A stretch of 64,000 nt of DNA from Promethearchaeota archaeon (GTDB lineage: Archaea > Asgardarchaeota > Lokiarchaeia > Sigyniarchaeales > SOKP01): contig JBHLNS010000010.1 of NCBI GenBank assembly GCA_048941285.1, forward strand, positions 20,177 to 84,176. The letters are read 5' to 3'. Below the pieces are notes generated by a model. It made no database searches. It saw nothing but the letters and a program-made list of their open reading frames with translations, and was not told the origin of the DNA. Below, piece by piece: positions 6,490-58,104 of the stretch (positions within the stretch are counted from its first letter, which is position 1; every line of letters begins with the position of its first letter). The position numbers were made by a program, and so were the translations under genes.

Positions 6490-7128
6490 CTAAGAAATCT
6501 CCTCTTTTGGTAATGGATATTTTTTAAGAAATCGAATAAAAATTACTAAGCCTATGATTAAAATTATACAGCCGATAATCCCATATGATAATAACCATCT
6601 AATTCTATAATCCATGAATGCGTGTAATAAGTCATTAATTAATACTGCTAACCATATAAGCATACCAATAAAATATAGTCGCGAAAACTTCATTAAATAA
6701 GCTATTATGGCGCAAATAGGTATGATAAATAAGCCAATAATTAATATAAAAACTATCCCTTGAACTTGTATTCCAGAACCATTTCCAACAACTAGTAAAG
6801 AAAGAAAGATTATCTGAATTACAAATTGAACCGAAATGACAACAATTAATTTTTTTCCTATTGATTTTAAAGAAGTTCCAGGTTTTGCAATTCCAGTTCG
6901 AGGCTGAATGACATATTTTATGATAAAGATAGGGACCACACATGCAATACTAACAATAATTAGTGGCCATAAAAAATAATTATAAGGTGTAGGTAAACCC
7001 TCACGAAAGATTGGCCCAAAAGACATTCCAGTAACAACAAAACCAAGTATTATATCAAAAAGACCATGTTGATGAGCCGTTTTGAGAACATTTTTCTCTA
7101 TAGTCTTTAAATCAATATTTTTATTCAT
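6490..7128 (-). CDS. membrane protein, tandem paralogue 2 of 3 (unknown family)
   Basis: 212 aa; IDLKTIEKN...HGLFD, PRTGIAKPG loop, FIRFLKKYPLPK; 3-nt gaps to both neighbours. Confidence 0.65.
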   Translation of the reverse strand: MNKNIDLKTIEKNVLKTAHQHGLFDIILGFVVTGMSFGPIFREGLPTPYNYFLWPLIIVSIACVVPIFIIKYVIQPRTGIAKPGTSLKSIGKKLIVVISVQFVIQIIFLSLLVVGNGSGIQVQGIVFILIIGLFIIPICAIIAYLMKFSRLYFIGMLIWLAVLINDLLHAFMDYRIRWLLSYGIIGCIILIIGLVIFIRFLKKYPLPKEEIS

Positions 7129-7131
7129 AAA

Positions 7132-7779
7132 TTAAGGTGTCTCCTGTTTTGATAATGGATATTTCCTGATAAATTTTACTAGAGATACAACCCCAATGAA
7201 GATAATGATACAGCTTACAATTCCGAATGCTGTCAAAGCATCGAATGGTTCTGGGATAATAAAAAAGAATAATTCTGATAGAAAGAAACTTAATCCCACC
7301 AAAATAGCTATAAAATACAATCTAGTATATTGAAGGAAATATGCTGCAAAAGATAATGGAGCTGTTATAAATAGTAATCCTATAATTAATCCCTCTATAT
7401 AACCCGGAAAAATTGATCTCAAGGCTGGATTTACTAATCGTAAAATAAAAAGAATTAAGAGAATAACCGAATTAATAGATAACACTATTATTATTTTTAA
7501 TTTCCGGGACTTTTGTCTAAATCCAAATTTTACAACTCCTAAACGGGGCTGTGTAATAAATTTTTTACCGAGTAAAAATAGAACTAACCCAATTATGATG
7601 AGAATTATTGGTAATAAGCTATCAAAAGGTTCAGGTAATAAATCCCCTAGGGTTATGCCTATACCAATACTTAGAACCAACATACCAAAGTAGATATCTA
7701 GGAGACCGTCCTCAAGGGTAGATTTCCATGTTTTCTTTTCAATTTCCTTTAAATCAATTTTATTTGTTATCTTTCTCAC
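7132..7779 (-). CDS. membrane protein, tandem paralogue 1 of 3 (unknown family)
   Basis: 215 aa; GTG start; IDLKEIEKK...DGLLD, PRLGVVKFGFRQKSRK loop, VKFIRKYPLSK. Confidence 0.6.
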   Translation of the reverse strand: MRKITNKIDLKEIEKKTWKSTLEDGLLDIYFGMLVLSIGIGITLGDLLPEPFDSLLPIILIIIGLVLFLLGKKFITQPRLGVVKFGFRQKSRKLKIIIVLSINSVILLILFILRLVNPALRSIFPGYIEGLIIGLLFITAPLSFAAYFLQYTRLYFIAILVGLSFFLSELFFFIIPEPFDALTAFGIVSCIIIFIGVVSLVKFIRKYPLSKQETP

Positions 7780-12740: not shown

Positions 12741-13580
12741 TTACGATTTGAAGCCTGTTATTTCTTCGCAAATCTTCCATAATCGGTTAGCATATTCTTT
12801 GTTGTAAGATTCTTCTGAAGATTCTCTTGGTTCCTTATTTATAAAATACTTACCTGTTATTCCTTCTACGTCTGGAGAAGAGGCTAAATAAATTGATGTT
12901 TTAGCTCCTTCTTCTGGACTTTTGAAGAATTTTCTTGCAAACCATTGGCTAAACTTTGACTGATCTCGACCAAGATTAGTATTAACCACGCCAGGATGGA
13001 CTGCATTAACCGTTACTCCAGTTCCTTCTAATCTTCTACTTAATTCATAAGTGAATAATACAGTTCCTAACTTAGATATTCCATATACTCTAAATAAGCT
13101 ATATTTCTTGTTTTCACTCTGAAGATCATCGAAATCAATTTTAGCTTTTTTATGTGCTGCTGAGGCGACATTAATAATGCGACTTGGAGCACTTTTTTTT
13201 AGATCATCAAGTAATAAATTGGTTAATAAAAAGGGACCAATAAGATGTGTCGCAAAATTCATTTCAATTCCATCTATAGATAAAATTCGCTCTTTAAGCA
13301 TGATTCCAGCGTTATTTATTAATACGTGTAAACTCTTATATTTACTCTTAAAATCTGAAACGAACTTGCGAATTGAATCCTGAGATGATAAATCACATAA
13401 AAGTAAATCAACATTTCTGTTTCCTGTCTTCTCAATGATTTCTTTTTTTGCTTCTTCTCCACGTTCTTTACTAATACAGAGCATTACTACAGTTGCATTC
13501 ATACTTGCTAAAGCTTTTGCTGTTTCCTTTCCGATACCTGAATTAGCACCAGTTATTAAGCATACTTTTCCTTCCATCAT
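12741..13580 (-). CDS. SDR family oxidoreductase (retinol-dehydrogenase-like)
   Basis: TGANSGIGKETA cofactor motif, NNAG, catalytic YGISK (YxxxK). Confidence 0.9.
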   Translation of the reverse strand: MMEGKVCLITGANSGIGKETAKALASMNATVVMLCISKERGEEAKKEIIEKTGNRNVDLLLCDLSSQDSIRKFVSDFKSKYKSLHVLINNAGIMLKERILSIDGIEMNFATHLIGPFLLTNLLLDDLKKSAPSRIINVASAAHKKAKIDFDDLQSENKKYSLFRVYGISKLGTVLFTYELSRRLEGTGVTVNAVHPGVVNTNLGRDQSKFSQWFARKFFKSPEEGAKTSIYLASSPDVEGITGKYFINKEPRESSEESYNKEYANRLWKICEEITGFKS

Positions 13581-13635
13581 AAGTCTAAACTCTTCTTTAT
13601 AGATTACATTGCTAGTAATATTTTGAATGATAAAA

Positions 13636-15321
13636 TTATAATAAATATGTTGTCAATATACCATAAGTCGAAATTACTGAAATTAGAATTATCAAAATGA
13701 TTACAGTTATCCTAAAAATAAAGGTTTTTTTTAATTTTTTTGAAAGAACTTCTTTTGGAAAATTCATAAAATTATAAATATATTTATTAAAAATACTCTT
13801 TCCTTCACGTTTACGAGTAATTTCAATTCTATAGACAGCGTGGAGTGTTATTATTTCAATTTGATCAATTGGGAAGCAAACATAAAGAAATATAAAGGCA
13901 AATTCAATAATTAAGAAAATAGTGCTAATTATGTTACTTAATAGAAATACATGGGCATCAAGTACAATCCATTCTTCAATCTGATATGCGATGGTTAAAA
14001 TTAAAATCCATCCTATCAGAGAGATATCTAATAGTTCTAATTTACGAAACTGTTTTTTAACTGAAACGGATCCCACCTTATTATGTGTTATATATTGGAA
14101 TTTAAATTTAAATTTTCTTTGAAATCTAAAAATCTTGCTATTATCATCGTAATGGAAAGTATCGCCTCCTCGATTACTAAAATTATAATTTAATGCTTTA
14201 GCTAATAATATGATCCCATAGAGAAGGGTTATCCAAAATAGTAATGGCCCCAGTAAGAATAATTCAGTATTTATAAAAGTTGTTCTTATTATTAGAAACA
14301 ATCCAAAGATTAAAGCAAACATTTGAAAATGTCGATTACTTACCTTTGAAAATAGAGTATCGTCTTTTTCATATTTCTTTAATTCACAACCTAAAAATTC
14401 ACTAAAATTTTTGGTAAATTGGAATCGTTTTTTGCCTTGTATTGGAGAAAACCACATATAGTACAACAAATCTGCTGTGATAATTTCATAAAAGTCTTGA
14501 GTAAAAAATATAAGTAAAATTAAACCAAAAATTTCTAAAATTGAACATATGATGAGAAACCACGAAATGTAAAGTTCGGAAACATTAATTGGATCAATAA
14601 ATATTGAAATTGCAGTTATTAGTTGAAATCCAATTAGAGGTACTAAAAGCAGGATCCAAGATAATTTACGTCCGAGATAATTATTTTGATATTTTATAGT
14701 ATCAATCTGATTTTTAGGAATTTCATGGATCCAAGGAAATAGAGGGCGATATTCTAAAAAAAAGTAGGAATTTTGAGATTGAGTGAATATTCCTCTGAAA
14801 GGACTCAATATTAAATAAATAAAAAGACTAATTCCAATACCGAATGCTGGGAGTCCAATAGCATAGAAAAAAGTATTTTCTCCGAGAATAAAGAACCCTG
14901 CATAATTAATTTGATTTATAGTATTTTGAGTAGAAATTATAATAGAAATTATACCAACTGATATAAATGTTAGAGCTGCGATCAATCGGCTTATTGAGAA
15001 TGAGTTGAATTTAATAGAATTTTCCAATGATTCTCTAAAATTACTCGAATCTATGCGAATCGATGATTCTCTACGTAAATAATAGGGTGGAAAAATAAAT
15101 TTCCAAGTAATTACCATACCAATTACTATAATCAATATGTAAATCATAAGCGAGAGATTAATACCGTTTATTCGTATTCCAAAATCGATTTGAGATGTTG
15201 TAAATAAAATCCCTAATAAAATTAAAGATGAACCAAAAATCAAATAGATTAAGCGAAATAACCATCTTTTTAGAGATGAAATTTTTAACTTCTCGAGTTC
15301 ATCCTCGCTTAAAACACTCAT
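13636..15321 (-). CDS. large polytopic membrane protein, function unknown
   Basis: 561 aa, more than 10 hydrophobic segments, no recognisable motif; divergent from the PL11-like gene. Confidence 0.55.
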   Translation of the reverse strand: MSVLSEDELEKLKISSLKRWLFRLIYLIFGSSLILLGILFTTSQIDFGIRINGINLSLMIYILIIVIGMVITWKFIFPPYYLRRESSIRIDSSNFRESLENSIKFNSFSISRLIAALTFISVGIISIIISTQNTINQINYAGFFILGENTFFYAIGLPAFGIGISLFIYLILSPFRGIFTQSQNSYFFLEYRPLFPWIHEIPKNQIDTIKYQNNYLGRKLSWILLLVPLIGFQLITAISIFIDPINVSELYISWFLIICSILEIFGLILLIFFTQDFYEIITADLLYYMWFSPIQGKKRFQFTKNFSEFLGCELKKYEKDDTLFSKVSNRHFQMFALIFGLFLIIRTTFINTELFLLGPLLFWITLLYGIILLAKALNYNFSNRGGDTFHYDDNSKIFRFQRKFKFKFQYITHNKVGSVSVKKQFRKLELLDISLIGWILILTIAYQIEEWIVLDAHVFLLSNIISTIFLIIEFAFIFLYVCFPIDQIEIITLHAVYRIEITRKREGKSIFNKYIYNFMNFPKEVLSKKLKKTFIFRITVIILIILISVISTYGILTTYLL

Positions 15322-41507: not shown

Positions 41508-43841
41508 TTGAAATTAATGAGAAAAAAACAAATTATAGGATTATTACTAATCCTGAGTATCGTAAATATTGCTGGCTTCTCAATGGCTATATTTACGATT
41601 AATAAAACTGTAAGTGATATTAATAATGATTTATTAAATTCACTTAAAATCAAGGATTACAAACCATTCGATGCTACTGCTCGTTTTGAAGATAAGACTA
41701 TTGATGATTCACAAAGTCTTAAATTTATCGCTTTAAAAGGCGAAATTCTTGATATCGAAAACACTTGGACAGTGCCGCTCATAGATGATTATACAGGAGA
41801 GGTATATGACCAGGATTTTGAATGTGTATTAGAAGGAGTACATTGCAATATTTGGATTGGATTAAGCCCTGATATTTGGGAGGGTGGATTCCAAGATGAA
41901 TACGATGCTCAAGGCGAAGGCTTTGAAGATGATATCTGGTATTTTGCATACCCTTGGAGTTCTATAGGTATTGACGCGATAGAAGCTGAAGCTCCTGATC
42001 CTGATAATGATGGCTATTATTTACCACCTGAATATCGGGATTGGGTAACTGGAGCGAATCTATTAGACATAAGAGATGAATTCGATGATAATATCCATGA
42101 TAGTGTTATTGACCATTTTGGTCAATATGCTGCCCGACCAGGCCCCTTAGAAGACTATAAAATTCAAGTATTGATATTCAATATCCGAGATGGACTATTC
42201 TATGATCCAATAAATGCACCATGGTTTACAATAGGTTATTTCTGGTCATATGCAAGTGAACTTAATGATGCAAATATATTTCACATGGATACATATCAAT
42301 GGTGGAGACGACAAGGTGAACCAACTAACATTTATTATGGTCTTGGACCGCTTCCACTTCAATATGAAGGTACTTTCGCTCATGAATTTCAACACTTGGT
42401 ACATCACGATGTTGATGGGGATGAATTATCTTGGGTTAATGAAGGATGTTCGGTATTAGCAGAGTGGATTTGTGGATATGGATTCCCAGCAGGACATATT
42501 TCTGAGTATTTGCTCTATTGGTGGGATGTTTCTTTAGTAATCTGGCAAGGTACACTGGCAGATTATGGTGTATGTTTTCTGTGGACTTTCTATATGTGGG
42601 AACACTATGGTGGAGATCCATTAATATGGGATATTGTTCATGAACAAACCAATGGAATAGAAGGTTGGAATAATGTTCTTACGGCTCATGGTGTAGAGAA
42701 ATCATTTGATGAGATTTTCCAAGATTGGGCTATAGCAAACTATCTTGATGGTGAAGGAATCTATGGTTATGAAGCTTTAGATATCCCTTCAGCAGATACT
42801 GAAGGGTGGGATATAGCTCAAACTTTATACTTATGGGAACATAATAATCCAACTCTATTTGATACAGAAGTTCAAACTTATCCTAATTATGGATACAATT
42901 ATCCATATGGATCTTCATTGCCTTATGTTGTCAATTACGTTAATTTCTATAAAGTGGGAGCCCCACATATACTCACGGTGAATTTTGATGGTGATGATTT
43001 ATGTGGTATCCCCTCCCATGAAGGAGATTATAAGTGGCATTCAGGTGGAGATGCTTGGGCTTGGTTTAGATTAGAACAAACATTTTCCATACCAGAAGGC
43101 GGAGCAACGTTAAACTTTTGGAACAATTTTGAAATTGAAGAAGAATGGGACTTTGGCTATGTAGAAGTTCATGATCTTACTACTGATGAGTGGTACACAT
43201 TACCAGGAATAATGACTGTTGATGATTGTGGTTTCAATTACCAAACAGACAACGAAAATTGCCCTGATGGTTTTGAACCAACTGATTATTATGATGCAGG
43301 GCGATGGCATGCATTCACAGGCTCTAGTGGTGGTTGGTATCAGGAAGAGATGGACCTCTCATTGTTTGCTGGGCATGAAATAGAATTGTATTTTACTTAT
43401 TGGACGGATCCATATACTCTTGAGGCGGGTTGGTATATTGATGAAATAGAGATCCCCGAAATTGGGTTCAGTGATACTGTTGAAAATGAAGAACATGGTT
43501 GGACAGTATATGATGGATGGTATCGAAGCAATATACTTTACGACAATAGTTTTACAGTAAGTTTCATCGATTTTGTCAACATCTACTCTAATAGTGGAAA
43601 CTTATTAGCGTCTTCATATGAGTTAGAATTTATGAATCTTGATCCAGAAACTGAAACTGGTCAAAAGATTTCTGCTTTAATAGATAATGGTGGACTTCAA
43701 ACATACACAATAATGGTAGCTGCTAACCAACCAGGCTTTGAACATACTTTTGGAACAGCCTATTCCTTTACCGCTGAAGCTGATAAAGTAGAAGATTATA
43801 ACTGGCTTTGGCGTTGGTTGTTTGGCCCTGTGGTTGAGTAA
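41508..43841 (+). CDS. secreted/anchored gluzincin-type zinc metallopeptidase (HEFQH...NEG)
   Basis: HEFQH at 42381..42395 with a downstream WVNEG Glu; N-terminal hydrophobic anchor; very acidic and Trp/Tyr-rich; track start TTG 41508, first ATG 41517. Confidence 0.65.
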   Translation: MKLMRKKQIIGLLLILSIVNIAGFSMAIFTINKTVSDINNDLLNSLKIKDYKPFDATARFEDKTIDDSQSLKFIALKGEILDIENTWTVPLIDDYTGEVYDQDFECVLEGVHCNIWIGLSPDIWEGGFQDEYDAQGEGFEDDIWYFAYPWSSIGIDAIEAEAPDPDNDGYYLPPEYRDWVTGANLLDIRDEFDDNIHDSVIDHFGQYAARPGPLEDYKIQVLIFNIRDGLFYDPINAPWFTIGYFWSYASELNDANIFHMDTYQWWRRQGEPTNIYYGLGPLPLQYEGTFAHEFQHLVHHDVDGDELSWVNEGCSVLAEWICGYGFPAGHISEYLLYWWDVSLVIWQGTLADYGVCFLWTFYMWEHYGGDPLIWDIVHEQTNGIEGWNNVLTAHGVEKSFDEIFQDWAIANYLDGEGIYGYEALDIPSADTEGWDIAQTLYLWEHNNPTLFDTEVQTYPNYGYNYPYGSSLPYVVNYVNFYKVGAPHILTVNFDGDDLCGIPSHEGDYKWHSGGDAWAWFRLEQTFSIPEGGATLNFWNNFEIEEEWDFGYVEVHDLTTDEWYTLPGIMTVDDCGFNYQTDNENCPDGFEPTDYYDAGRWHAFTGSSGGWYQEEMDLSLFAGHEIELYFTYWTDPYTLEAGWYIDEIEIPEIGFSDTVENEEHGWTVYDGWYRSNILYDNSFTVSFIDFVNIYSNSGNLLASSYELEFMNLDPETETGQKISALIDNGGLQTYTIMVAANQPGFEHTFGTAYSFTAEADKVEDYNWLWRWLFGPVVE

Positions 43842-46367: not shown

Positions 46368-47222
46368 ATGAAAGGAATAGAAAAATTTAGGGAGAAGTTA
46401 CCAGATTATCAAGGAAAAAGAATAATTAAATTTTTAGTTGTTGTTCCAATTGTTTTTCTAATCTCCATAGTCTTTCAGTTAGTAATAGATTCACTACCAC
46501 GTATCCTCAGAGAATCCCCTATTTTGCAAATTCTGGAACCATTGACTCCCATTTTTGGTTCATTGATAATCCTAGTCATTGGCTTCTCATTGGTCTATTC
46601 ATTCTGGCATATGAGAGATAAATATTTGAAGATTAATCACAAATTAGCCTATCAAAAAGCCTTTAAATTTGTTGTGACTGGTATCCCACTAGTAATTTCA
46701 ATTGTAATCCATAGCTATTTCCCTACTGATTTAATTATGCCATACCAAGATAATAAATCTATTAGTTGGTATTTAGCGTTACCTATTTCTAATATTTTCT
46801 TCAATTATTCAATTATTTTGTTTTTTATTAGAATAACCTTATGTATTGTATTTTTTGGATTAGCATTAAGCGTAATTAGAAAGACTTTTGAAGTATTTGG
46901 CATTGATTATATGGGTTTAATCTATATCTATTACCCAGAAGATTCTAAAATTCAAAACCACGAAATTTATTCTGTATTACGTCATCCAACTTATCATTGC
47001 CTTTTACTATTTAATTTTGCGAGTTTTTTTTTAAGATTCTCTGTTTATTCTATTATCTATTTTGTAATATTTTTGATAGGGATAAATATTCATATTAGAT
47101 TGGTAGAAGAGAAAGAATTAATTCGGAGATTCGGAGAAGATTACATTAAGTATAGAAAAAGTGTACCCGCACTCTTTGTAAGAATGAAAGATTTAAAAAA
47201 GTATTTCGCTCTCATATTTTAA
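46368..47222 (+). CDS. ICMT/PEMT-family membrane methyltransferase (N-terminally extended)
   Basis: YSVLRHPTYHCLLLF and VEEKELIRRFGEDYIKYRKSVP. Confidence 0.7.
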   Translation: MKGIEKFREKLPDYQGKRIIKFLVVVPIVFLISIVFQLVIDSLPRILRESPILQILEPLTPIFGSLIILVIGFSLVYSFWHMRDKYLKINHKLAYQKAFKFVVTGIPLVISIVIHSYFPTDLIMPYQDNKSISWYLALPISNIFFNYSIILFFIRITLCIVFFGLALSVIRKTFEVFGIDYMGLIYIYYPEDSKIQNHEIYSVLRHPTYHCLLLFNFASFFLRFSVYSIIYFVIFLIGINIHIRLVEEKELIRRFGEDYIKYRKSVPALFVRMKDLKKYFALIF

Positions 47223-47234
47223 AACGTTGTTTTA

Positions 47235-47828
47235 CTATTTTTTCTTAAATCGGGGAAAGATAGCACCAGTTTTTTTTTGATATTCCCTATATTTTTCACC
47301 AAAACGTTTTATAAGGTCTTGCTCCTCATAGTAAATCATAATTGGAACATATAATATTATATAAATACTCATTAGGACAATAAGAAACCATGAATTCACC
47401 ATAAAAGCTATTGCAATAAATAATGGGAATTCTCCAAGCGATTGAGGATGCCTTATATAATTATATATCCCCCCATACATCTGTGTATCTTGAGATGGTT
47501 GGATAGTTTCTTGACCTGCATCTCTTACTCCTTTTATAAGTATAATTAAACAGGGAATGGTAATTAATACCCCAATTACAATACCAATTATATAATTTGT
47601 GTGTACTTGCCAACTAACTAAAGAAATCGGAAACATGCTCCATAGTGTCAAATTTATCACAATTATAAACTCAAAAAAACTCGCAAAAATTCGTAATTTC
47701 ATACATTCTCTCCAAGCACGATCGCCCTTTGTTTGTTCTCTCTTTATTGGTTGAATACTTAAAATATAAAGGAAACTAAAAAGAAAGAGGCTTAATAATA
47801 ATGATCCAAAATTTATCCAATCAAACAT
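47235..47828 (-). CDS. ICMT/PEMT-family membrane methyltransferase
   Basis: GIYNYIRHPQSLGEFPLF and YEEQDLIKRFGEKYREYQKKTGAIFP; convergent with the previous paralogue, 12-nt gap. Confidence 0.7.
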   Translation of the reverse strand: MFDWINFGSLLLSLFLFSFLYILSIQPIKREQTKGDRAWRECMKLRIFASFFEFIIVINLTLWSMFPISLVSWQVHTNYIIGIVIGVLITIPCLIILIKGVRDAGQETIQPSQDTQMYGGIYNYIRHPQSLGEFPLFIAIAFMVNSWFLIVLMSIYIILYVPIMIYYEEQDLIKRFGEKYREYQKKTGAIFPRFKKK

Positions 47829-48102: not shown

Positions 48103-49281
48103 ATGCTTTTAAATGATTTATCGAATATAATAGGAGAAACGGCAGAAGATTGCATAATTTATAAGAAGTTGTGTAAAGAAGTTGAATATGATTTTGATAA
48201 TACTTTAAAAGAATCAACTTTAGGAGAAATTCCATTTGTTCCATGGAGTTTTTTTAAACTTTCGAATAATAGATTTAAAGATTTATTGCGAGGTAATACT
48301 TTTGAAAATCTAAAATATTGGATGGAATCTTCTTCAACTTGTGGAGACCCTAGTATCGTGGGAAGATTGGATAATGACATTGAAGTCTTAAAAGCTAATT
48401 ATAATGAGGTTTTTAATTCATTTTCCCAAAAAGATAAAGTGAATAATTTAATCTTATTTGCACCAGGAATGAGAATCATTAATAAAATACGACACAATTT
48501 TTACGGTATAAATGCTTTTCTTCTTTATAAAAGCATTGTAGACATATGGGAAGGAAAAAATATTAATTATTTACTACAATTCTTTTTGGGTAAAACTATA
48601 GGAAAAATGTTAACCACATTTAAAGCTCGAGCAGTAATTGGGATTAATGGAAAATTACTCAAATATGAACTTGATCGAGTTGAACAAAAAAAAATTCCTA
48701 CCATAATGGCTAATTCTCCACTATGGATGCATAAAGTGTTAAATGATTATTATCTTAAGGAGAAAAAAACTTTTGATCTAGGTGATCATTTTTATATTAT
48801 TACGGGGGGTGGGGGATGGGACGGAACAAAAGGGCGTGTTAAATTAGGATATAGTGTAAAAAAACCTGAATTTGTTGAACAAATGTGTAATATGTTCAAC
48901 ATTACCCCCGATAATTTTTGTGATAATTTTGCAGCTACTGAAAGTCCAATGGCATGTGGTGGTCATTGGTCAAACCACTATAACGATTTTATACTCCACG
49001 TTAATAATGCCCAGGGTCGAATAGTAATTCGTGATATTCAAACTTCAGAACCTATAAGAAAAACAGGAGAGCCTGGTCTTTTGGAATTAATAACTCCATA
49101 TGGAGTGGAGGGCTATGCAGGATTAGCTGTTTTACTAGATGATATTGTTCAAGTAGAAAATTGGGAAAGATGCCCAGAATGTAATCGAGAAGGCCCAATT
49201 TTTCGAGTATTGGGACGATTAACACCTTCTATCGGAAAAGGATGCAGTTCATTATTTACTCTAGATGCATATAATTTGTAA
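48103..49281 (+). CDS. LuxE-family acyl-protein synthetase / adenylate-forming enzyme
   Basis: Collinear with LuxE landmarks: IPFVPWSFFK, SSSTCGDPS (SSGT-like), YIITGGGGW, EPGLLELITP, KGCSSLFT. Confidence 0.6.
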   Translation: MLLNDLSNIIGETAEDCIIYKKLCKEVEYDFDNTLKESTLGEIPFVPWSFFKLSNNRFKDLLRGNTFENLKYWMESSSTCGDPSIVGRLDNDIEVLKANYNEVFNSFSQKDKVNNLILFAPGMRIINKIRHNFYGINAFLLYKSIVDIWEGKNINYLLQFFLGKTIGKMLTTFKARAVIGINGKLLKYELDRVEQKKIPTIMANSPLWMHKVLNDYYLKEKKTFDLGDHFYIITGGGGWDGTKGRVKLGYSVKKPEFVEQMCNMFNITPDNFCDNFAATESPMACGGHWSNHYNDFILHVNNAQGRIVIRDIQTSEPIRKTGEPGLLELITPYGVEGYAGLAVLLDDIVQVENWERCPECNREGPIFRVLGRLTPSIGKGCSSLFTLDAYNL

Positions 49282-49607
49282 AATTAATTATAAAATTCAT
49301 ATGTGATAATTAAACTTCTTATAAACTTTGGTTTTAAATCTATTAAATTATAACATCCACTGTTTAATACAATCGATATATTAAACTATTTGAATATTAT
49401 CTATTTTTTGCCAATCTTATTAAACTTAATTTAAATTTTGATATATTTAGTTTTGAAATCAGGTGTTCAGTTAAAATTGAAGAAGATTATATTATTTGAA
49501 GAAAAATGTAACTCACTCTTATACCATCTACATATTAATAACCAGTCAATACTCCGATTATATGGGAATATTATTTTATATATCAAAAAAACAATAGAGT
49601 TGATTTT

Positions 49608-50636
49608 ATGAGAAGTAATAATTTAAAAATATTAGCTTTGGTTTTCTTAGGATTTATGTTTTTAAGTGTTAGTCTAGGAACTGTTGTAGCTACTACTGAT
49701 GACGATTCAGATGGAGTAGAAGATCAATTCGAAGAAGAACATGAGAGGACCATAAATACAGAAATAGAAGATAACATTATTAGTATAGAGTCGGTGTTGC
49801 GTACTGAAACAGGAAAAAACAAAATAGAATTTGAGATTAGCAATGAATCGGAAGGTTTAAGTTTTAAAGTTGAATTTACACCAAATTACAACCCTGCTTC
49901 AAATAATTCGCAAATTCAGTTAGAATTTGAAGTTACCTTTAAACAAATTGTTGAATATGTAGATGTTGATGCAGATGGTATATTTACTGAATCAGTTGAT
50001 GAAGAGATTAGCGTTACCAGTTTGGATGACTTTAAAGCACCCATTTATACTATAAGTGATATTTCTTTAGACACTAAAATGCATTACATTGTTTTAACGA
50101 CTACAGATGATGTATTTACAGCTCATGTCTATTTTGTAGAAGAATTTGAAATTATCAATGAAACTTTGATCACACCAACTGAAACGAAAATCGATATTGA
50201 AATCAATAATTACAATTACGTTAATGATTCATCTCAATTAGCCTTATACACAAAGTTGGAATCTGAAGTAAATTACAAGATGGATGATAAAACTGAAGAT
50301 GAAACTTCAGGGTATGCAGAGGATGAGAGTAGCGCCTTTACTATGCAAAACTCTTTTATTGGATTTTTTAGCTGGAAAGAAAATGCTACAATTGATGGTG
50401 TTTCTAAGAATGTGTTAGTTAGTCAAATCGAAGATGATGATTTTGAGCCCAATGAACAAAAGATTTATCTCAATTATCCCAGAGGGACTTTAATTTATCA
50501 TGACCCGAAAATCGGTATTGGTCTACCATTAGCATCTCAGATGATTCCTGGCTATACAATTTTAATCATAGCGTTAGTAAGTGTCCTTGGAATTACCGGA
50601 ATTATTTATGCCATTAAGAAGAAGCAAAGAATGTAA
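49608..50636 (+). CDS. acidic secreted surface protein, paralogue A (unknown family), C-terminal TM anchor
   Basis: Signal-like N-terminus; DDDSDGVEDQFE and VDVDADG motifs; shared blocks SKIDIEINNYNY, SSQLALYTKLESE, NYPRGTLIYHDPKIG; C-terminal PGY-TM-KKKQRM. Confidence 0.6.
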   Translation: MRSNNLKILALVFLGFMFLSVSLGTVVATTDDDSDGVEDQFEEEHERTINTEIEDNIISIESVLRTETGKNKIEFEISNESEGLSFKVEFTPNYNPASNNSQIQLEFEVTFKQIVEYVDVDADGIFTESVDEEISVTSLDDFKAPIYTISDISLDTKMHYIVLTTTDDVFTAHVYFVEEFEIINETLITPTETKIDIEINNYNYVNDSSQLALYTKLESEVNYKMDDKTEDETSGYAEDESSAFTMQNSFIGFFSWKENATIDGVSKNVLVSQIEDDDFEPNEQKIYLNYPRGTLIYHDPKIGIGLPLASQMIPGYTILIIALVSVLGITGIIYAIKKKQRM

Positions 50637-50648
50637 ATTTAAAAATAA

Positions 50649-50658
50649 TTTTTTTTTT
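50649..50658 (+). terminator. oligo-T tract (T10) after paralogue A
   Basis: T10 lies 13 nt after the stop at 50636. Confidence 0.4.
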
Positions 50659-50783
50659 ATTTTATAAGTATTATGTTTAATTTTTTAACCGACATTAGCA
50701 AAAAACCATAAAAATTTATTGGCAAATAAAATATAAAAACAATTTTTAAAAAAAAACAAAAATGCTATTATGTGAGTTCTGTT

Positions 50784-52073
50784 ATGAAAAAAAGAAGCCT
50801 TTTCTTTAGCATCCTAATTATAGGAACTATCTTATTCAATTTAAGTATCGCAACTGTAATAGCTTCAGATGATGATTTTGATGGAATTGATGATGAATTT
50901 GAAACTGTGAATAATAGAAACATAGCAATTAGTTTTTCAAGCGATGAGTTTGAAGTAAATTCAATTTTAAGAACTGGAATACATAGAGATATTATAAAAT
51001 TTGACATAAGGTATAATAGCGACGGAATCGAAATAAATCTCCGATATAATTCTGAATTTGAAGGCGAAAATCAAAGTAATTTCAAACTAGAATTCTCAGT
51101 TTCTTTTCGTAGATTAATAGAATTTGTTGATATGGATAGTAATGGAATTTATGATGATTCAATCGATCAAACAATTCAAGAAGTAGAAATAAAAGATTTT
51201 AACCCGATTAATTATTCTCAAATTGAGTTATCATCAAATACTACTTTGCATTATATCAAACTAAGTACTGAAGATGGAATTTTCACAACCCACTTTTACT
51301 TTTCTGAAGAATTCACAAGCATAAATAACAGTTTAATCTCACCATCCGAATCAAAAATAGATATTGAGATTAATAATTTCAATTATACCCATGGATCGTC
51401 CCAACTTGCTCTCTATGTTAAATTGGAATCTGAATCTGATTATGAAGAGAATGAGGAAACGGAAGATGAAGATTTAGGTTTTGCTCATAATGAAACTTCA
51501 GTTATTACAGCAAATCAGAGTCGAATTGGGTTTTTGTCGTGGAAAAAATCTGCCATTATTGATGGCAGCGAGCACCAAATTAAAATTTCTCCCATTGAAG
51601 TTGATGACGACGACGCAATGGAGCAAAAAGTCTATATCAATTATCCAAGGGGCCAAAAAATCTATCACGACCCAAAATTAGGAGTTGAAGGTATATTAAG
51701 ATCGATTCTTCAACCGCCTTTTCCATTTGGCTTAACAACAATAATAATTATTGTATTTGTATTTAGCATTAGCATTGCTTACGCTGCATATCACTATAGA
51801 GAGAATTTACTTCCTAGTATTTTCCTAGCAAATGGGAAAAAAAAAGAAACTGAACAAATACCTAAAAAGAAATTTTTAACTACTAGCCATAAGATTGAGG
51901 AAATCCTATCTAATACTAAATTAACAGCCATTTCACCAGACTTTTTTAAACTTGTGGAGCAATTCGAATTTGATGGTGATGAGAAAGATGAATTTATTAA
52001 AGAAATGTTAGCTTTGAATCCATTTGAAAGGAACTTGATAATTAAGGAAATGATTAAAAAGCATAAATTGTAA
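50784..52073 (+). CDS. acidic secreted surface protein, paralogue B, with TM and about 90-aa cytoplasmic tail
   Basis: Start placed at ATG 50784 (track opens at GTG 50772); DDDFDGIDDEFE and VDMDSNG motifs; SKIDIEINNFNY, SSQLALYVKLESE, NYPRGQKIYHDPKLG. Confidence 0.6.
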   Translation: MKKRSLFFSILIIGTILFNLSIATVIASDDDFDGIDDEFETVNNRNIAISFSSDEFEVNSILRTGIHRDIIKFDIRYNSDGIEINLRYNSEFEGENQSNFKLEFSVSFRRLIEFVDMDSNGIYDDSIDQTIQEVEIKDFNPINYSQIELSSNTTLHYIKLSTEDGIFTTHFYFSEEFTSINNSLISPSESKIDIEINNFNYTHGSSQLALYVKLESESDYEENEETEDEDLGFAHNETSVITANQSRIGFLSWKKSAIIDGSEHQIKISPIEVDDDDAMEQKVYINYPRGQKIYHDPKLGVEGILRSILQPPFPFGLTTIIIIVFVFSISIAYAAYHYRENLLPSIFLANGKKKETEQIPKKKFLTTSHKIEEILSNTKLTAISPDFFKLVEQFEFDGDEKDEFIKEMLALNPFERNLIIKEMIKKHKL

Positions 52074-52106
52074 GTAAATTGTTGATATAACTCCTGGTCT
52101 ATTAAA

Positions 52107-52775
52107 ATGTCGGTTGAGCTAGTTGCACAAGAAAGAGTAGTATTTGATATTGTACAAGATTATTTAAGTAAAAACCGGCAATTTAATATTGATGATATTA
52201 TTCCATATATTAGTTTCCATCTTAGACGATCTTCAAATAATCTTAATTATGAAGGAATAAAATCGGTTTTAAAATCTTTGGTTAAGAAAAAATTCCTAAT
52301 TGAAGGCTCTAAATTGACACATGCTGATATTTTAAAAAACCATAAACGTAAAAAGATATATAATCATATTATAAAAAACCCTGGAATTTATTTTACTAAG
52401 ATTATTAGTGATTTAGGCTTTAGCAATCATGTAGCAGTATGGCATCTGAATATATTAATTAAATTTAATTATATAAAAAAAAGAATTTACAATAAGCATG
52501 AAGTCTTTTTTGATTCAAAGGTTGACCCAAATGAGGCTAAATTTGAATTTTATATTTCCCTTGATAAATCTAAAACTATAATTCAGTATCTTGAAAAAAA
52601 CAATATAGGCATCACAAAAACTGGCCTTTCAAAAGCTCTTAATATGCATGTAAACACTCTCTCAAAATATCTTGATATCCTGGAAAAATTAAAAGTAATT
52701 TTAAAAGAAAAAATAGATAATACAAAATTGATTTTTATAAATGAAGATCTCTTAGCACAGATTAATTATTTTTAA
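52107..52775 (+). CDS. multi-winged-helix DNA-binding protein (ArsR-like)
   Basis: Central RKKIYNHIIKNPGIYFTKIISDLGFSNHVAVWHLNILIKFNYIKK is a classical archaeal wHTH; flanking segments (..GIKSVLKSLVKKKFLIEG.. and ..ITKTGLSKALNMHVNTLSKYLDILEKL..) look like further wHTH units. Confidence 0.55.
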   Translation: MSVELVAQERVVFDIVQDYLSKNRQFNIDDIIPYISFHLRRSSNNLNYEGIKSVLKSLVKKKFLIEGSKLTHADILKNHKRKKIYNHIIKNPGIYFTKIISDLGFSNHVAVWHLNILIKFNYIKKRIYNKHEVFFDSKVDPNEAKFEFYISLDKSKTIIQYLEKNNIGITKTGLSKALNMHVNTLSKYLDILEKLKVILKEKIDNTKLIFINEDLLAQINYF

Positions 52776-52903: not shown

Positions 52904-53554
52904 ATGATTATAAATAGAATTAAGAAATTGATCGCTGTTTTATTTTTAATCCTATTTATTAATATAGGTTTTATCTTATCTGCTATTGAAGTATATTTTA
53001 ATTTGGGTACTTTAATCATAATAATCAGTTTTACATTGATATTAAGCCTTGATATTAGTATTAGGCCAATAACTCAGAAAAGAGATCAGTTTAAATATGC
53101 CACGCTTTCAGTATTGTTATTTTTACTACTTCCATTGTTATCTATTATTCCGTATTTAGAATTCTACTTTCTAACACAGCGATATTTCATAATATGGAAT
53201 AATTTTTTATTATATTTTGTTGGAATGGTTTTATTATTACTTGGTGGGATAATTTTGATTTATAGCAGACTTATCCTAGGAAAGCTTGCATCTAGTAAAA
53301 TTGTTATTGAACAAAATCATATTTTAATAAACAAAGGAATTTATAAATATATTAGACATCCGATATATTTAGGGATGCTTCTTATTTTTTTTGGTTATGC
53401 GTTATCTTTCAAATCTGTTTTTAGTCCTTTTTCTTTTCTAATTTTATTCTTCCTTATTTTTAATAATCGCATGAATTTGGAGAGGAATATGAATCTTATA
53501 TTAATAAAACTAAGAGACTTATTCCTTATATATATTGAAATTTTAAATGAGTAA
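52904..53554 (+). pseudogene. ICMT/PEMT-family methyltransferase with a frame-disrupted C-terminus
   Basis: KGIYKYIRHPIYLGMLLIFFGYAL is intact. The canonical C-terminal block EFGEEYESYINKTKRLIPYIY* is encoded in a different frame (53473..53538), and the EE..L element expected before it is missing. Confidence 0.55.
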
Positions 53555-57615: not shown

Positions 57616-58104
57616 ATGGCAGATTTGAATCCCGAAAAATTGCATGTTGTTTATAAAGATTCGGTTGATGCTGATAGATTAGTTTTGCCTCGTAAATATA
57701 CATTAACACATTCTGATTCAACTGGAGAGCTTTTCCTTACAATAGGAATTGAATATGATTATGAACAAATTTCAAGTTTTTATACTCGATTTATGAGAGA
57801 CGAGGTATTAGCTGAATGGCAAAAGAAGGAAAAAGATTTTGAACTCCATTTCTACTTACATGTGAGTGGTGGTTTTTGCTTCGGATGGCCAAGATTACGA
57901 GATAGAATCTTTCGATATCACCTACCCCTTGTTTTTGAAGCAGTTAGATATGGAGATAAGAAATTATTTGAAGAAATGCCAGAAATCAAGGATTCACAAA
58001 TTATTGTACATTTTCAATCGAATAGAAAGAAATATAATCTTATTGAAAATTTCGGACAATTTTGCGAGATCCCCGTTAAGAATTATAGAATATTCACTCA
58101 ATAG
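57616..58104 (+). CDS. Staygreen (SGR) family protein, Mg-dechelatase homologue
   Basis: Collinear with plant SGR landmarks: LPRKYTLTHSDSTGELFLTIG, RDEVLAEW, LHFYLHVSGG, RDRIFRYHLPLVFEAVRYGDKKLFEEMPEI, IIVHFQSN..YNLIENFG. Confidence 0.8.
   Translation: MADLNPEKLHVVYKDSVDADRLVLPRKYTLTHSDSTGELFLTIGIEYDYEQISSFYTRFMRDEVLAEWQKKEKDFELHFYLHVSGGFCFGWPRLRDRIFRYHLPLVFEAVRYGDKKLFEEMPEIKDSQIIVHFQSNRKKYNLIENFGQFCEIPVKNYRIFTQ

Follow-up and report, generated by a model that had tools for sequence, protein, structure and literature searches.

The window analysed here, a 64,000-nt stretch of Promethearchaeota archaeon contig JBHLNS010000010.1 (G+C ~30%; coordinates are window positions unless another locus is named), carries three adjacent forward-strand genes: paralogues A (49608-50636) and B (50784-52073), encoding type-I membrane proteins, and a gene encoding a protein with three winged-helix (wH) domains (52107-52775). 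This trio recurs in Asgard genomes, and in other family members the ectodomain, a transmembrane helix and two of the winged helices lie in a single polypeptide. The favoured interpretation, given a probability of about 0.55, is that A and B together make up an extracytoplasmic receptor by which a winged-helix regulator is tethered or sequestered; synteny and natural fusions point to the coupling, and the mechanism is inferred. Few concrete candidates are available for signalling across the membrane to gene expression in Asgard archaea. The trio is one of them, and is open to testing because Promethearchaeum syntrophicum MK-D1, which is in culture, has members of the family. In model the ectodomain resembles GLMP (NCU-G1), a link between a surface protein of an archaeon and a membrane glycoprotein of animal lysosomes.

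Gene trios and ectodomain-winged-helix fusions

Open reading frames (ORFs) were called in all fetched loci and searched with a hidden Markov model (HMM) of the family, with the winged helix-turn-helix (wHTH) protein of the window and with the cytoplasmic tail of B. Twelve trios consisting of A, B with its tail and a three-wH protein were identified (the window, L002/L003, L006, L008-L012, L014, L015 and two in L013), extending to 12 loci the conservation in related metagenome-assembled genomes (MAGs) that the initial annotation had proposed as a check. Two complete trios stand in tandem on the 7.4-kb contig of L013 (2-3218 and 3473-6668), suggesting that the module duplicates as a unit. A conserved helical motif at the C-terminal end of the B tail (...S.DFFK....F.W...E...FI.EM..L.P.ER..I..EM; about nt 51924-52061, +) is shared by the second genes of the 12 trios and is otherwise absent; the tail and the three-wH protein co-occur in 12/12 trios and both are absent from every other locus. 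Recurrence of the pair and of the trio in many independent Asgard genomes excludes chance as an explanation for either. None of the genes flanking the window trio is conserved across the loci compared, and the LuxE-like, PEMT/ICMT-like, beta-lactamase-like and short-chain dehydrogenase/reductase flanks were excluded as parts of the module because they are not conserved with it.

The third gene, 33 nt downstream of B, encodes a basic protein of 222 aa (net charge +13) without transmembrane helices. Its AlphaFold2 (AF2) model (56 homologues; mean predicted local distance difference test score (pLDDT) 91.3) contains three helix-bundle-plus-hairpin units, bearing out the triple winged-helix reading of this gene in the initial annotation: wH1 (residues 7-71, nt 52125-52319), wH2 (residues 79-136, nt 52341-52514; HTH_HVO_0163_N-like) and wH3 (residues 153-211, nt 52563-52739; HTH_24), all on the + strand. 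HTH_24 scores 25.4, above the cutoff of 21.9, and the precomputed Pfam annotation of an identical NCBI protein (P0274) gives PF24266 (HTH_HVO_0163_N) and HTH_24 alike. Foldseek retrieved generic tandem-wH proteins with the whole chain (RPC6, SarS, TFIIIC, ESCRT-II, ScpB, SelB and the archaeal double-wH factor PF0095 of P. furiosus) and ArsR/SmtB/MarR/CadC repressors with single domains (TM-score to target ~0.7). A close known type is the HVO_0163-like tandem wHTH protein (PF24266 + PF13412), with wH2 giving a sub-threshold match to PF24266 and wH3 matching HTH_24; relative to such proteins the window, or split, form has an additional N-terminal wH1. Coupling of an HVO_0163-type wHTH to a membrane protein, be it genetic or physical, is not described in the literature searched; searches on HVO_0163 and on the Loki-CTERM signal considered below returned nothing relevant, with neither an Asgard membrane-bound winged-helix regulator nor a description of Loki-CTERM found.

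Fusions of ectodomain, transmembrane helix and wH2-wH3 occur in at least 11 sequences, one of them from the complete genome of cultured MK-D1. Sensor, transmembrane helix, HTH_HVO_0163_N and HTH_24 form one polypeptide, with both winged-helix domains above Pfam cutoffs, in P0254, P0236, P0227, P0224, P0200 and P0181 (520-585 aa) and in the MK-D1 protein of L016; the same components are split in the window. Further fusions are encoded in L020 and L004, and clusters P0240 and P0253 carry the NCBI name 'winged helix-turn-helix transcriptional regulator [Promethearchaeota]'. In the fused proteins the cytoplasmic part can be aligned residue by residue with wH2-wH3 of the window protein, WHL motif included (for example ...PGIHYSELLR...SNLAWHLDILE... 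in fused proteins and ...PGIYFTKIIS...SNHVAVWHLNILI... in the window), and a juxtamembrane [YH]YR[EA] is common to B-type and fused proteins. The B tail and wH1 are restricted to the split form, suggesting that together they provide the non-covalent equivalent of the covalent link. Linkage in 12 loci and the natural fusions place the wHTH gene within the module, as first proposed; the accompanying idea of a regulator belonging to the module holds as far as linkage is concerned, and rather than an ordinary neighbour its product is probably a protein physically coupled to B.

Other arrangements are also found. In MK-D1 (L016) and L020 the neighbour of A is a B-type protein that carries fused winged helices, and L004 encodes a fused protein with no A neighbour. 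L017, L019 and L022 (Heimdall-labelled) and L018 (unclassified archaeon) have adjacent short-tailed pairs unaccompanied by a wHTH gene, and lone family genes occur in L001, L007, L021, L024 and L025.

A itself is 100% identical to an NCBI hypothetical protein of a Promethearchaeota MAG. A word-indexed search returned 335 relatives, for which all listed source names are Asgard lineages. The relatives are either about 342 or about 433 aa long, and members of the two classes often share a contig and have consecutive locus tags. A profile search of 1.84 billion representatives gave 1062 clusters at E<=1e-3 (237 at E<=1e-30), and a scan in which each GTDB species was represented by a single genome gave 21 loci, in MK-D1 and in Asgard (Prometh-, Hermod-, Hod-, Heimdall- and Thorarchaeota) or unclassified-archaeon MAGs. 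A fold and a rationale for its gene organisation can thereby be assigned to a large unannotated Asgard family (>1000 clusters at 50% identity). Of the named members found, P0255 alone (MFQ5710701.1; 704 aa, Geothermarchaeales MAG) is non-Asgard; its family domain (about residues 391-686) is preceded by a long acidic stretch and a weak match to PepSY. In a crude neighbour-joining tree of the ectodomains most first genes of the trio lineages stand apart from most second genes and the Heimdall-type loci pair separately, a topology that fits old, retained duplications; A of the window groups with the lone genes of L001 and L007.

Surface features and fold of A and B

Paralogue A (342 aa, +) begins with a hydrophobic, signal-like segment (residues 1-28, nt 49608-49691), followed by an N-terminal DxDxDG loop (residues 31-42, nt 49698-49733), a GLMP-like beta-sandwich ectodomain assigned with AF2 and Foldseek (about residues 45-305) that includes an internal D-x-D-x-D-G loop (residues 119-131, nt 49962-50000), and a C-terminal PGY, transmembrane helix and KKKQRM (residues 314-342, nt 50547-50633). 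Paralogue B (+) has 429 aa from the ATG at 50784 or 433 aa from an alternative GTG at 50772, and its residue numbers refer to the 433-aa form. A signal peptide, a DDDFDG loop and a GLMP-like ectodomain are followed by a transmembrane helix (about residues 311-342, nt 51702-51797), a juxtamembrane YHYRE and a cytoplasmic tail of ~90 aa (residues 343-433, nt 51798-52070) that has no Pfam or PDB relative. The paralogy seen by eye in the initial annotation is confirmed by alignment (E=5e-77; 41% identity and 65% positives across 316 residues), and the shared blocks quoted there are present, apart from SKIDIE, for which A has TKIDIEINNYNY. The acidic, exposed type-I topology described for both proteins agrees with their signal peptides and transmembrane helices, and the PGY + helix + KKKQRM end of A and the internal helix and long tail of B are likewise as described.

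In both proteins the signal-like helix ends in V-x-A and runs directly into the loop (DDDSDGVEDQFE in A, DDDFDGIDDEFE in B; consensus D-D-D-x-D-G-[IV]-[ED]-D-x-F-E), again matching the earlier description. Across 69 homologues there is no variation at D33, D35, D39, E42 and R47, at least 90% have D31 and G36, and the proposed DxDxDG or thrombospondin type-3 (TSP3)-like loop is a conserved feature of the family. The N-terminal DxDxDG core occurs in 185/255 full-length members and the full D-x-D-x-D-G-[IV]-x-[DE]-x-x-E pattern in 170/255, a D-x-[DN]-x-[DN]-G core plus downstream acidic ligand thus being conserved. The internal loop (D-x-[DN]-x-[DN]-G-x-[YF]; 148/255 members) sits as a hairpin between two confidently modelled strands of the AF2 model. 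By position at the mature N-terminus and by motif, the family loop resembles DxDxDG Ca-binding loops (EF-hand-like, TSP3, dockerin). It falls outside the canonical EF-hand pattern because position 8 is acidic rather than hydrophobic, and it lacks flanking EF helices and the TSP3 cysteines; Ca2+ binding is putative.

Both ectodomains are highly acidic (net charge -46 in A and -36 in B) and free of cysteine. The abundance of N-x-S/T sequons noted previously is real in a mild form, with 5 in the ectodomain of A and 7 in that of B against ~3.3 +/- 1.6 expected, and enrichment across the family is twofold (5.8 vs 2.8 expected). Several are conserved in position (A numbering: N184 in 65/69, N259 in 55/69 and N99 in 47/63 homologues). 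Enrichment and positional conservation together support N-glycosylation of the exposed domain and, with the two DxDxDG-type loops, a picture of A and B as exposed, possibly Ca-binding glycoproteins.

The C-terminal end of A had been compared to the PGF-CTERM archaeosortase signal. A sub-threshold match to the NCBIfam model Loki-CTERM (NF033507) fits better (residues 313-340; 16.4 bits, E=0.0085, below the 19.9 cutoff); PF18204 (PGF-CTERM) gives no match in A and E=1.1 in one orthologue. With both signals A shares P-G-[YF], a hydrophobic helix and a KKK-rich tail, and its tripartite signature (PGY-TILIIALVSVLGITGIIYAI-KKKQRM) is kept in one A-type subclade, the only one with the PG[YF] motif; most A-type orthologues end simply in LP, a transmembrane helix and RRRR. 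NF033507 matches 10/69 family members at E<=0.1 (best 1e-4), and one A orthologue bears the NCBI name Loki-CTERM protein. B-type proteins differ from such signals in the long cytoplasmic tail that follows the helix, which must therefore be a true transmembrane anchor. No exosortase/archaeosortase Pfam domain is present among the 12 neighbouring ORFs scanned (41.5-58.1 kb), a result that holds for this segment of the window, and Loki-CTERM is not known to have a processing enzyme. Weak LPXTG-anchor-like Pfam matches (best E=0.0025) were identified at the C-termini of the first genes of two Heimdall-labelled pairs (L022, 4809-5891; L019, 4791-5879) and of the pair from the unclassified archaeon (L018, 4824-5891); the sorting or anchor motif that is placed C-terminal to this one ectodomain may vary between lineages.

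Structural envelope or adhesion glycoproteins, forming a coat possibly lipid-anchored after Loki-CTERM processing, with the wHTH protein an ordinary local factor physically unlinked to them (essentially the reading of the initial annotation), could share the acidic ectodomains, conserved sequons and DxDxDG loops, the tripartite end of A with its weak Loki-CTERM match and the weak LPXTG-like matches of Heimdall-type C-termini, and would sit well with the existence of lone copies and of pairs lacking a wHTH gene. Such a role is unlikely for A and B in view of the recurrent fusion of B-type ectodomain and transmembrane helix to wH2-wH3 and the strict co-occurrence of the B tail with the three-wH protein, and the Loki-CTERM-like motif that would provide the anchor is found in one subclade only.

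The AF2 model of the A ectodomain (69 homologues; pLDDT 83.7, predicted TM-score 0.76) is all-beta from about residue 47 to 305. The initial annotation could not place this domain in a known family and suggested a Foldseek search with its predicted structure. Against the PDB, the best match is the crystal structure of the GLMP luminal domain (6nyq_C; E=4.5e-9, TM-scores 0.54/0.57) and the second is GLMP in the MFSD1 complex (8r8q_B; E=4.9e-9), followed by YidC P1 and the N-terminal super-sandwich of GH65/GH94/GH38/PL enzymes (E ~1e-3, TM-scores 0.19-0.37). GLMP is the sole solved structure with a TM-score >0.5 to the A model, all other matches having query-normalised values <=0.37. By Foldseek on the AF2 model, A thus has the same fold as the exoplasmic domain of GLMP, and the ectodomain can be placed as GLMP/NCU-G1-like, by structure and faintly by sequence. 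The GLMP luminal domain has been likened to the dimerisation domain of a cellodextrin phosphorylase (PMC11252000), so the wider fold class agrees with the super-sandwich matches.

At sequence level, neither A nor B matches any Pfam family above cutoff, and PF15065 (NCU-G1 = GLMP) is not matched by either at E<=10. Among the 69 family members PF15065 is the most recurrent Pfam match (14/69 at E<=10, best E 0.0023; the runner-up has 5), with orthologues scoring 10-17 bits, all under the gathering score of 27 bits and hence outside Pfam membership. These matches are co-linear and in one register, family residues about 98-247 corresponding to profile positions 58-215 (P0020, 102-245 to 61-213; P0017, 99-247 to 59-215; P0018, 98-221 to 58-189; the same block in P0037, P0067, P0095 and P0116); Heimdall and MK-D1 members give none. 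A mouse-like GLMP (P0403, 94% identical to the mouse sequence, which was taken from PDB alignment output) matches profile positions 1-352 with residues 54-396, and through the shared register the Asgard block LEFEVTFKQIVEYVD pairs with the GLMP block FSSALVFTRLLEFD. An HMM of 253 ectodomains matches the same block in mouse GLMP, with 37/2000 shuffles scoring as well (P ~0.02). Alignment of the family profile to mammal-only GLMP profiles with hhalign (number of effective sequences ~2) is not significant (P=0.17-0.22). Full-length hhalign at low stringency pairs LEFxVxFxxxxEFVD with FSSALVFTRLLEFD, TEDE..GY with DDEYAP, GFFSW..A with GFxQWRPVA and transmembrane helix with transmembrane helix, the paired blocks being those that are invariant within each family. 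A 12-residue hhalign match from an initial run was out of register and was discarded as spurious, and a weak DUF7400 match (E=0.014), seen in 1/69 members, was dropped; phmmer and hmmsearch of A, P0018 and an A1 profile against PDB sequences gave nothing useful.

True homology of the Asgard ectodomain family with GLMP is probable on these grounds, short of proof. A shares with GLMP (PF15065; PDB 6NYQ, 8R8Q) a signal peptide, a beta-sandwich of ~300 aa, one transmembrane helix and a short basic tail, from which B deviates by its 90-aa tail; glycosylation is predicted for the Asgard proteins, and multiple conserved N-glycosylation sequons are present in both families. The differences are considerable: identity is ~12%, the Asgard proteins are cysteine-free, have DxDxDG loops where mouse GLMP has EFDSTNAS, and occur as adjacent paralogue pairs coupled to winged helices. 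If the homology is true, an endomembrane-associated protein joins the Asgard inventory of eukaryote-like proteins; no paper linking Asgard archaea with GLMP/NCU-G1 was found in the literature searched. A more extended scenario, in which the family is not only a true GLMP/NCU-G1 homologue but possibly its source and the ancestral context was a paired surface receptor wired directly to a winged-helix DNA-binding module, is tentative and rather doubtful; under it GLMP would be a eukaryotic signature protein not recognised as such before. Pfam still names PF15065 'Lysosomal transcription factor, NCU-G1', which, beside the link of its Asgard relatives to winged-helix domains, is probably a coincidence of nomenclature.

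GLMP is a single-pass accessory subunit of the major facilitator superfamily (MFS) transporter MFSD1 (PMC11252000), and as the only solved structure with the overall fold, of the same topology and size, it raises the alternative that A and B, glycosylated and single-pass, are accessory subunits that serve to stabilise or protect a polytopic transporter, with the wH module as a cytoplasmic scaffold. MFS genes do adjoin family members in L001, L004 and L011; at 3 of ~22 loci this is roughly chance level, none lies near the window trio and no transporter is conserved beside the trio across the loci compared, and on these gene neighbourhoods an MFS partnership like that of GLMP was rejected as a conserved trait. 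Fusion to HTH_24-type domains would also be left unexplained, and a transporter-subunit role is considered improbable.

Putative transcription signals and the proposed tethered regulator

An upstream element, ATACCA-N6-TATTAATA (WTACCA, 6 nt, TATA-like box; 49521-49540, +), lies about 68-87 nt before the start of A and is a candidate promoter with an upstream factor site. The same arrangement is found upstream of the A genes of the window, L002, L006, L008, L013 and L014 and of the B gene of L008; the pattern has 9 matches in 309 kb vs 2.0 +/- 1.5 expected, 7/9 preceding family genes. A second conserved block, GGGWWATTATTTTAT (window 49560-49607, with equivalents in L002 and L006; ~30-45 nt before the A start), is followed by a GGAG/GGGG Shine-Dalgarno-like site and may be a conserved element of the 5' untranslated region. 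Just past the A stop is a T10 tract (50649-50658, +), a putative archaeal terminator that likely separates A from B and the wHTH gene; in each of the 12 trio loci a T8-T17 run comes after the A-type stop, the AT-rich A-B spacer measures 76-254 nt and the B-wHTH spacer 18-50 nt. Given the oligo-T run and the short B-wHTH gap, A is probably a separate transcript and B and the wHTH gene are probably co-transcribed as a bicistronic unit. A scan for bacterial-type promoters and terminators was set aside as uninformative for an archaeon.

In the proposed mechanism, A and B would be secreted and then anchored as acidic, probably N-glycosylated type-I proteins, each with a GLMP/NCU-G1-like beta-sandwich of ~280 residues that carries two DxDxDG-type, putatively Ca2+-binding loops. 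Most likely the two would act together at the cell surface as a heteromeric receptor, for which a glycan or Ca2+ is a candidate ligand. B would relay the signal inward, its conserved cytoplasmic tail probably docking the three-wH protein via wH1, so that wH2-wH3 would be held at, or released from, the membrane depending on the ectodomain ligand. In MK-D1-type relatives, wH2-wH3 covalently attached behind the B-type transmembrane helix would make a single-chain membrane-tethered regulator. The ArsR/MarR-like wH folds and the element upstream of A genes hint that the wH unit, probably DNA-binding, may recognise specific sequences and control transcription in response to the signal, and A, with its own putative promoter and upstream element, would be a candidate target of the regulator (autoregulation).

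Several observations weigh against this interpretation. Judging by A-type genes that stand alone (L001, L007) and by Heimdall pairs without a wHTH gene, the ectodomain proteins can function with no regulator nearby. The A-B and tail-wH1 contacts are putative. PF24266 scores 26.3 in the window wHTH protein, below its cutoff of 31. Tandem winged helices double as protein-protein modules, as in ESCRT-II, ScpB and RPC6 among the fold matches, so that DNA binding by the wH unit is likewise putative. The upstream element pattern was defined post hoc from the same sequences in which it was counted, and is therefore only a lead.

ToxR/CadC one-component regulators and pairs of anti-sigma factors and extracytoplasmic function (ECF) sigma factors are single-pass tethered or sequestered regulators. 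The proposed Asgard receptor-regulator resembles them in its extracytoplasmic sensor, one transmembrane helix and cytoplasmic winged helices, placed either in one chain (MK-D1-type) or in a membrane protein and a soluble partner of the same operon (window). Unlike ToxR/CadC, it has the opposite polarity, with the sensor N-terminal and outside and the winged helices C-terminal, and both the sensor fold and the wH family (HTH_HVO_0163_N + HTH_24) are unrelated. From both known systems it differs in the regulator-less paralogue A, an obligatory neighbour, and in the archaeal basal transcription machinery. If the interpretation is true, a new, single-pass signalling route from membrane to genome would exist in the archaea most closely related to eukaryotes. 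That wH2-wH3 instead holds DNA, whether chromosomal, plasmid-borne or incoming, or some other nucleic acid at the membrane in segregation, uptake or defence, with A and B as the outer part, is suggested by the membrane-fused tandem wH domains and by ScpB and SelB wH arrays among the fold matches, and is the least probable alternative, as the best domain-level matches are classical ArsR/MarR/SmtB repressors and no segregation, uptake or defence partner genes are conserved nearby (no padloc search was made).

Neighbouring genes

Immediately upstream of A is a gene for a LuxE-like acyl-protein synthetase (48103-49281, +; E=1.6e-18), and further upstream one for a 777-aa protein with an InhA-like MAM domain (41508-43841, +; E=6.5e-17); neither is conserved beside the trio elsewhere. 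Three paralogous PEMT/ICMT-like multi-pass membrane methyltransferases flank the trio (46368-47222, +; 47235-47828, -; 52904-53554, +). A homologue of the last is found directly upstream of the lone A-type gene in L007, a linkage seen in close relatives only. Downstream, this non-photosynthetic Asgard archaeon has a 162-aa ORF (57616-58104, +) with a strong match to Pfam Staygreen (PF12638; E=1.8e-48), the family of Mg-dechelatases that act in chlorophyll breakdown.

Homologous TPR_MalT-type proteins of about 650-690 aa (mutual E about 1e-136) are encoded beside the lone A-type gene in L001 (9438-11378; complete genome CP070831) and beside the fused ectodomain-wHTH gene in L004 (7725-9794), and may be an alternative partner in these lineages. 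In L002, from a Hodarchaeota-labelled MAG, members of two eukaryote-like families are found: a gelsolin-domain protein immediately upstream of the trio (6697-7713) and, near it, a weakly EMC3/TMCO1-like protein (13461-14060).

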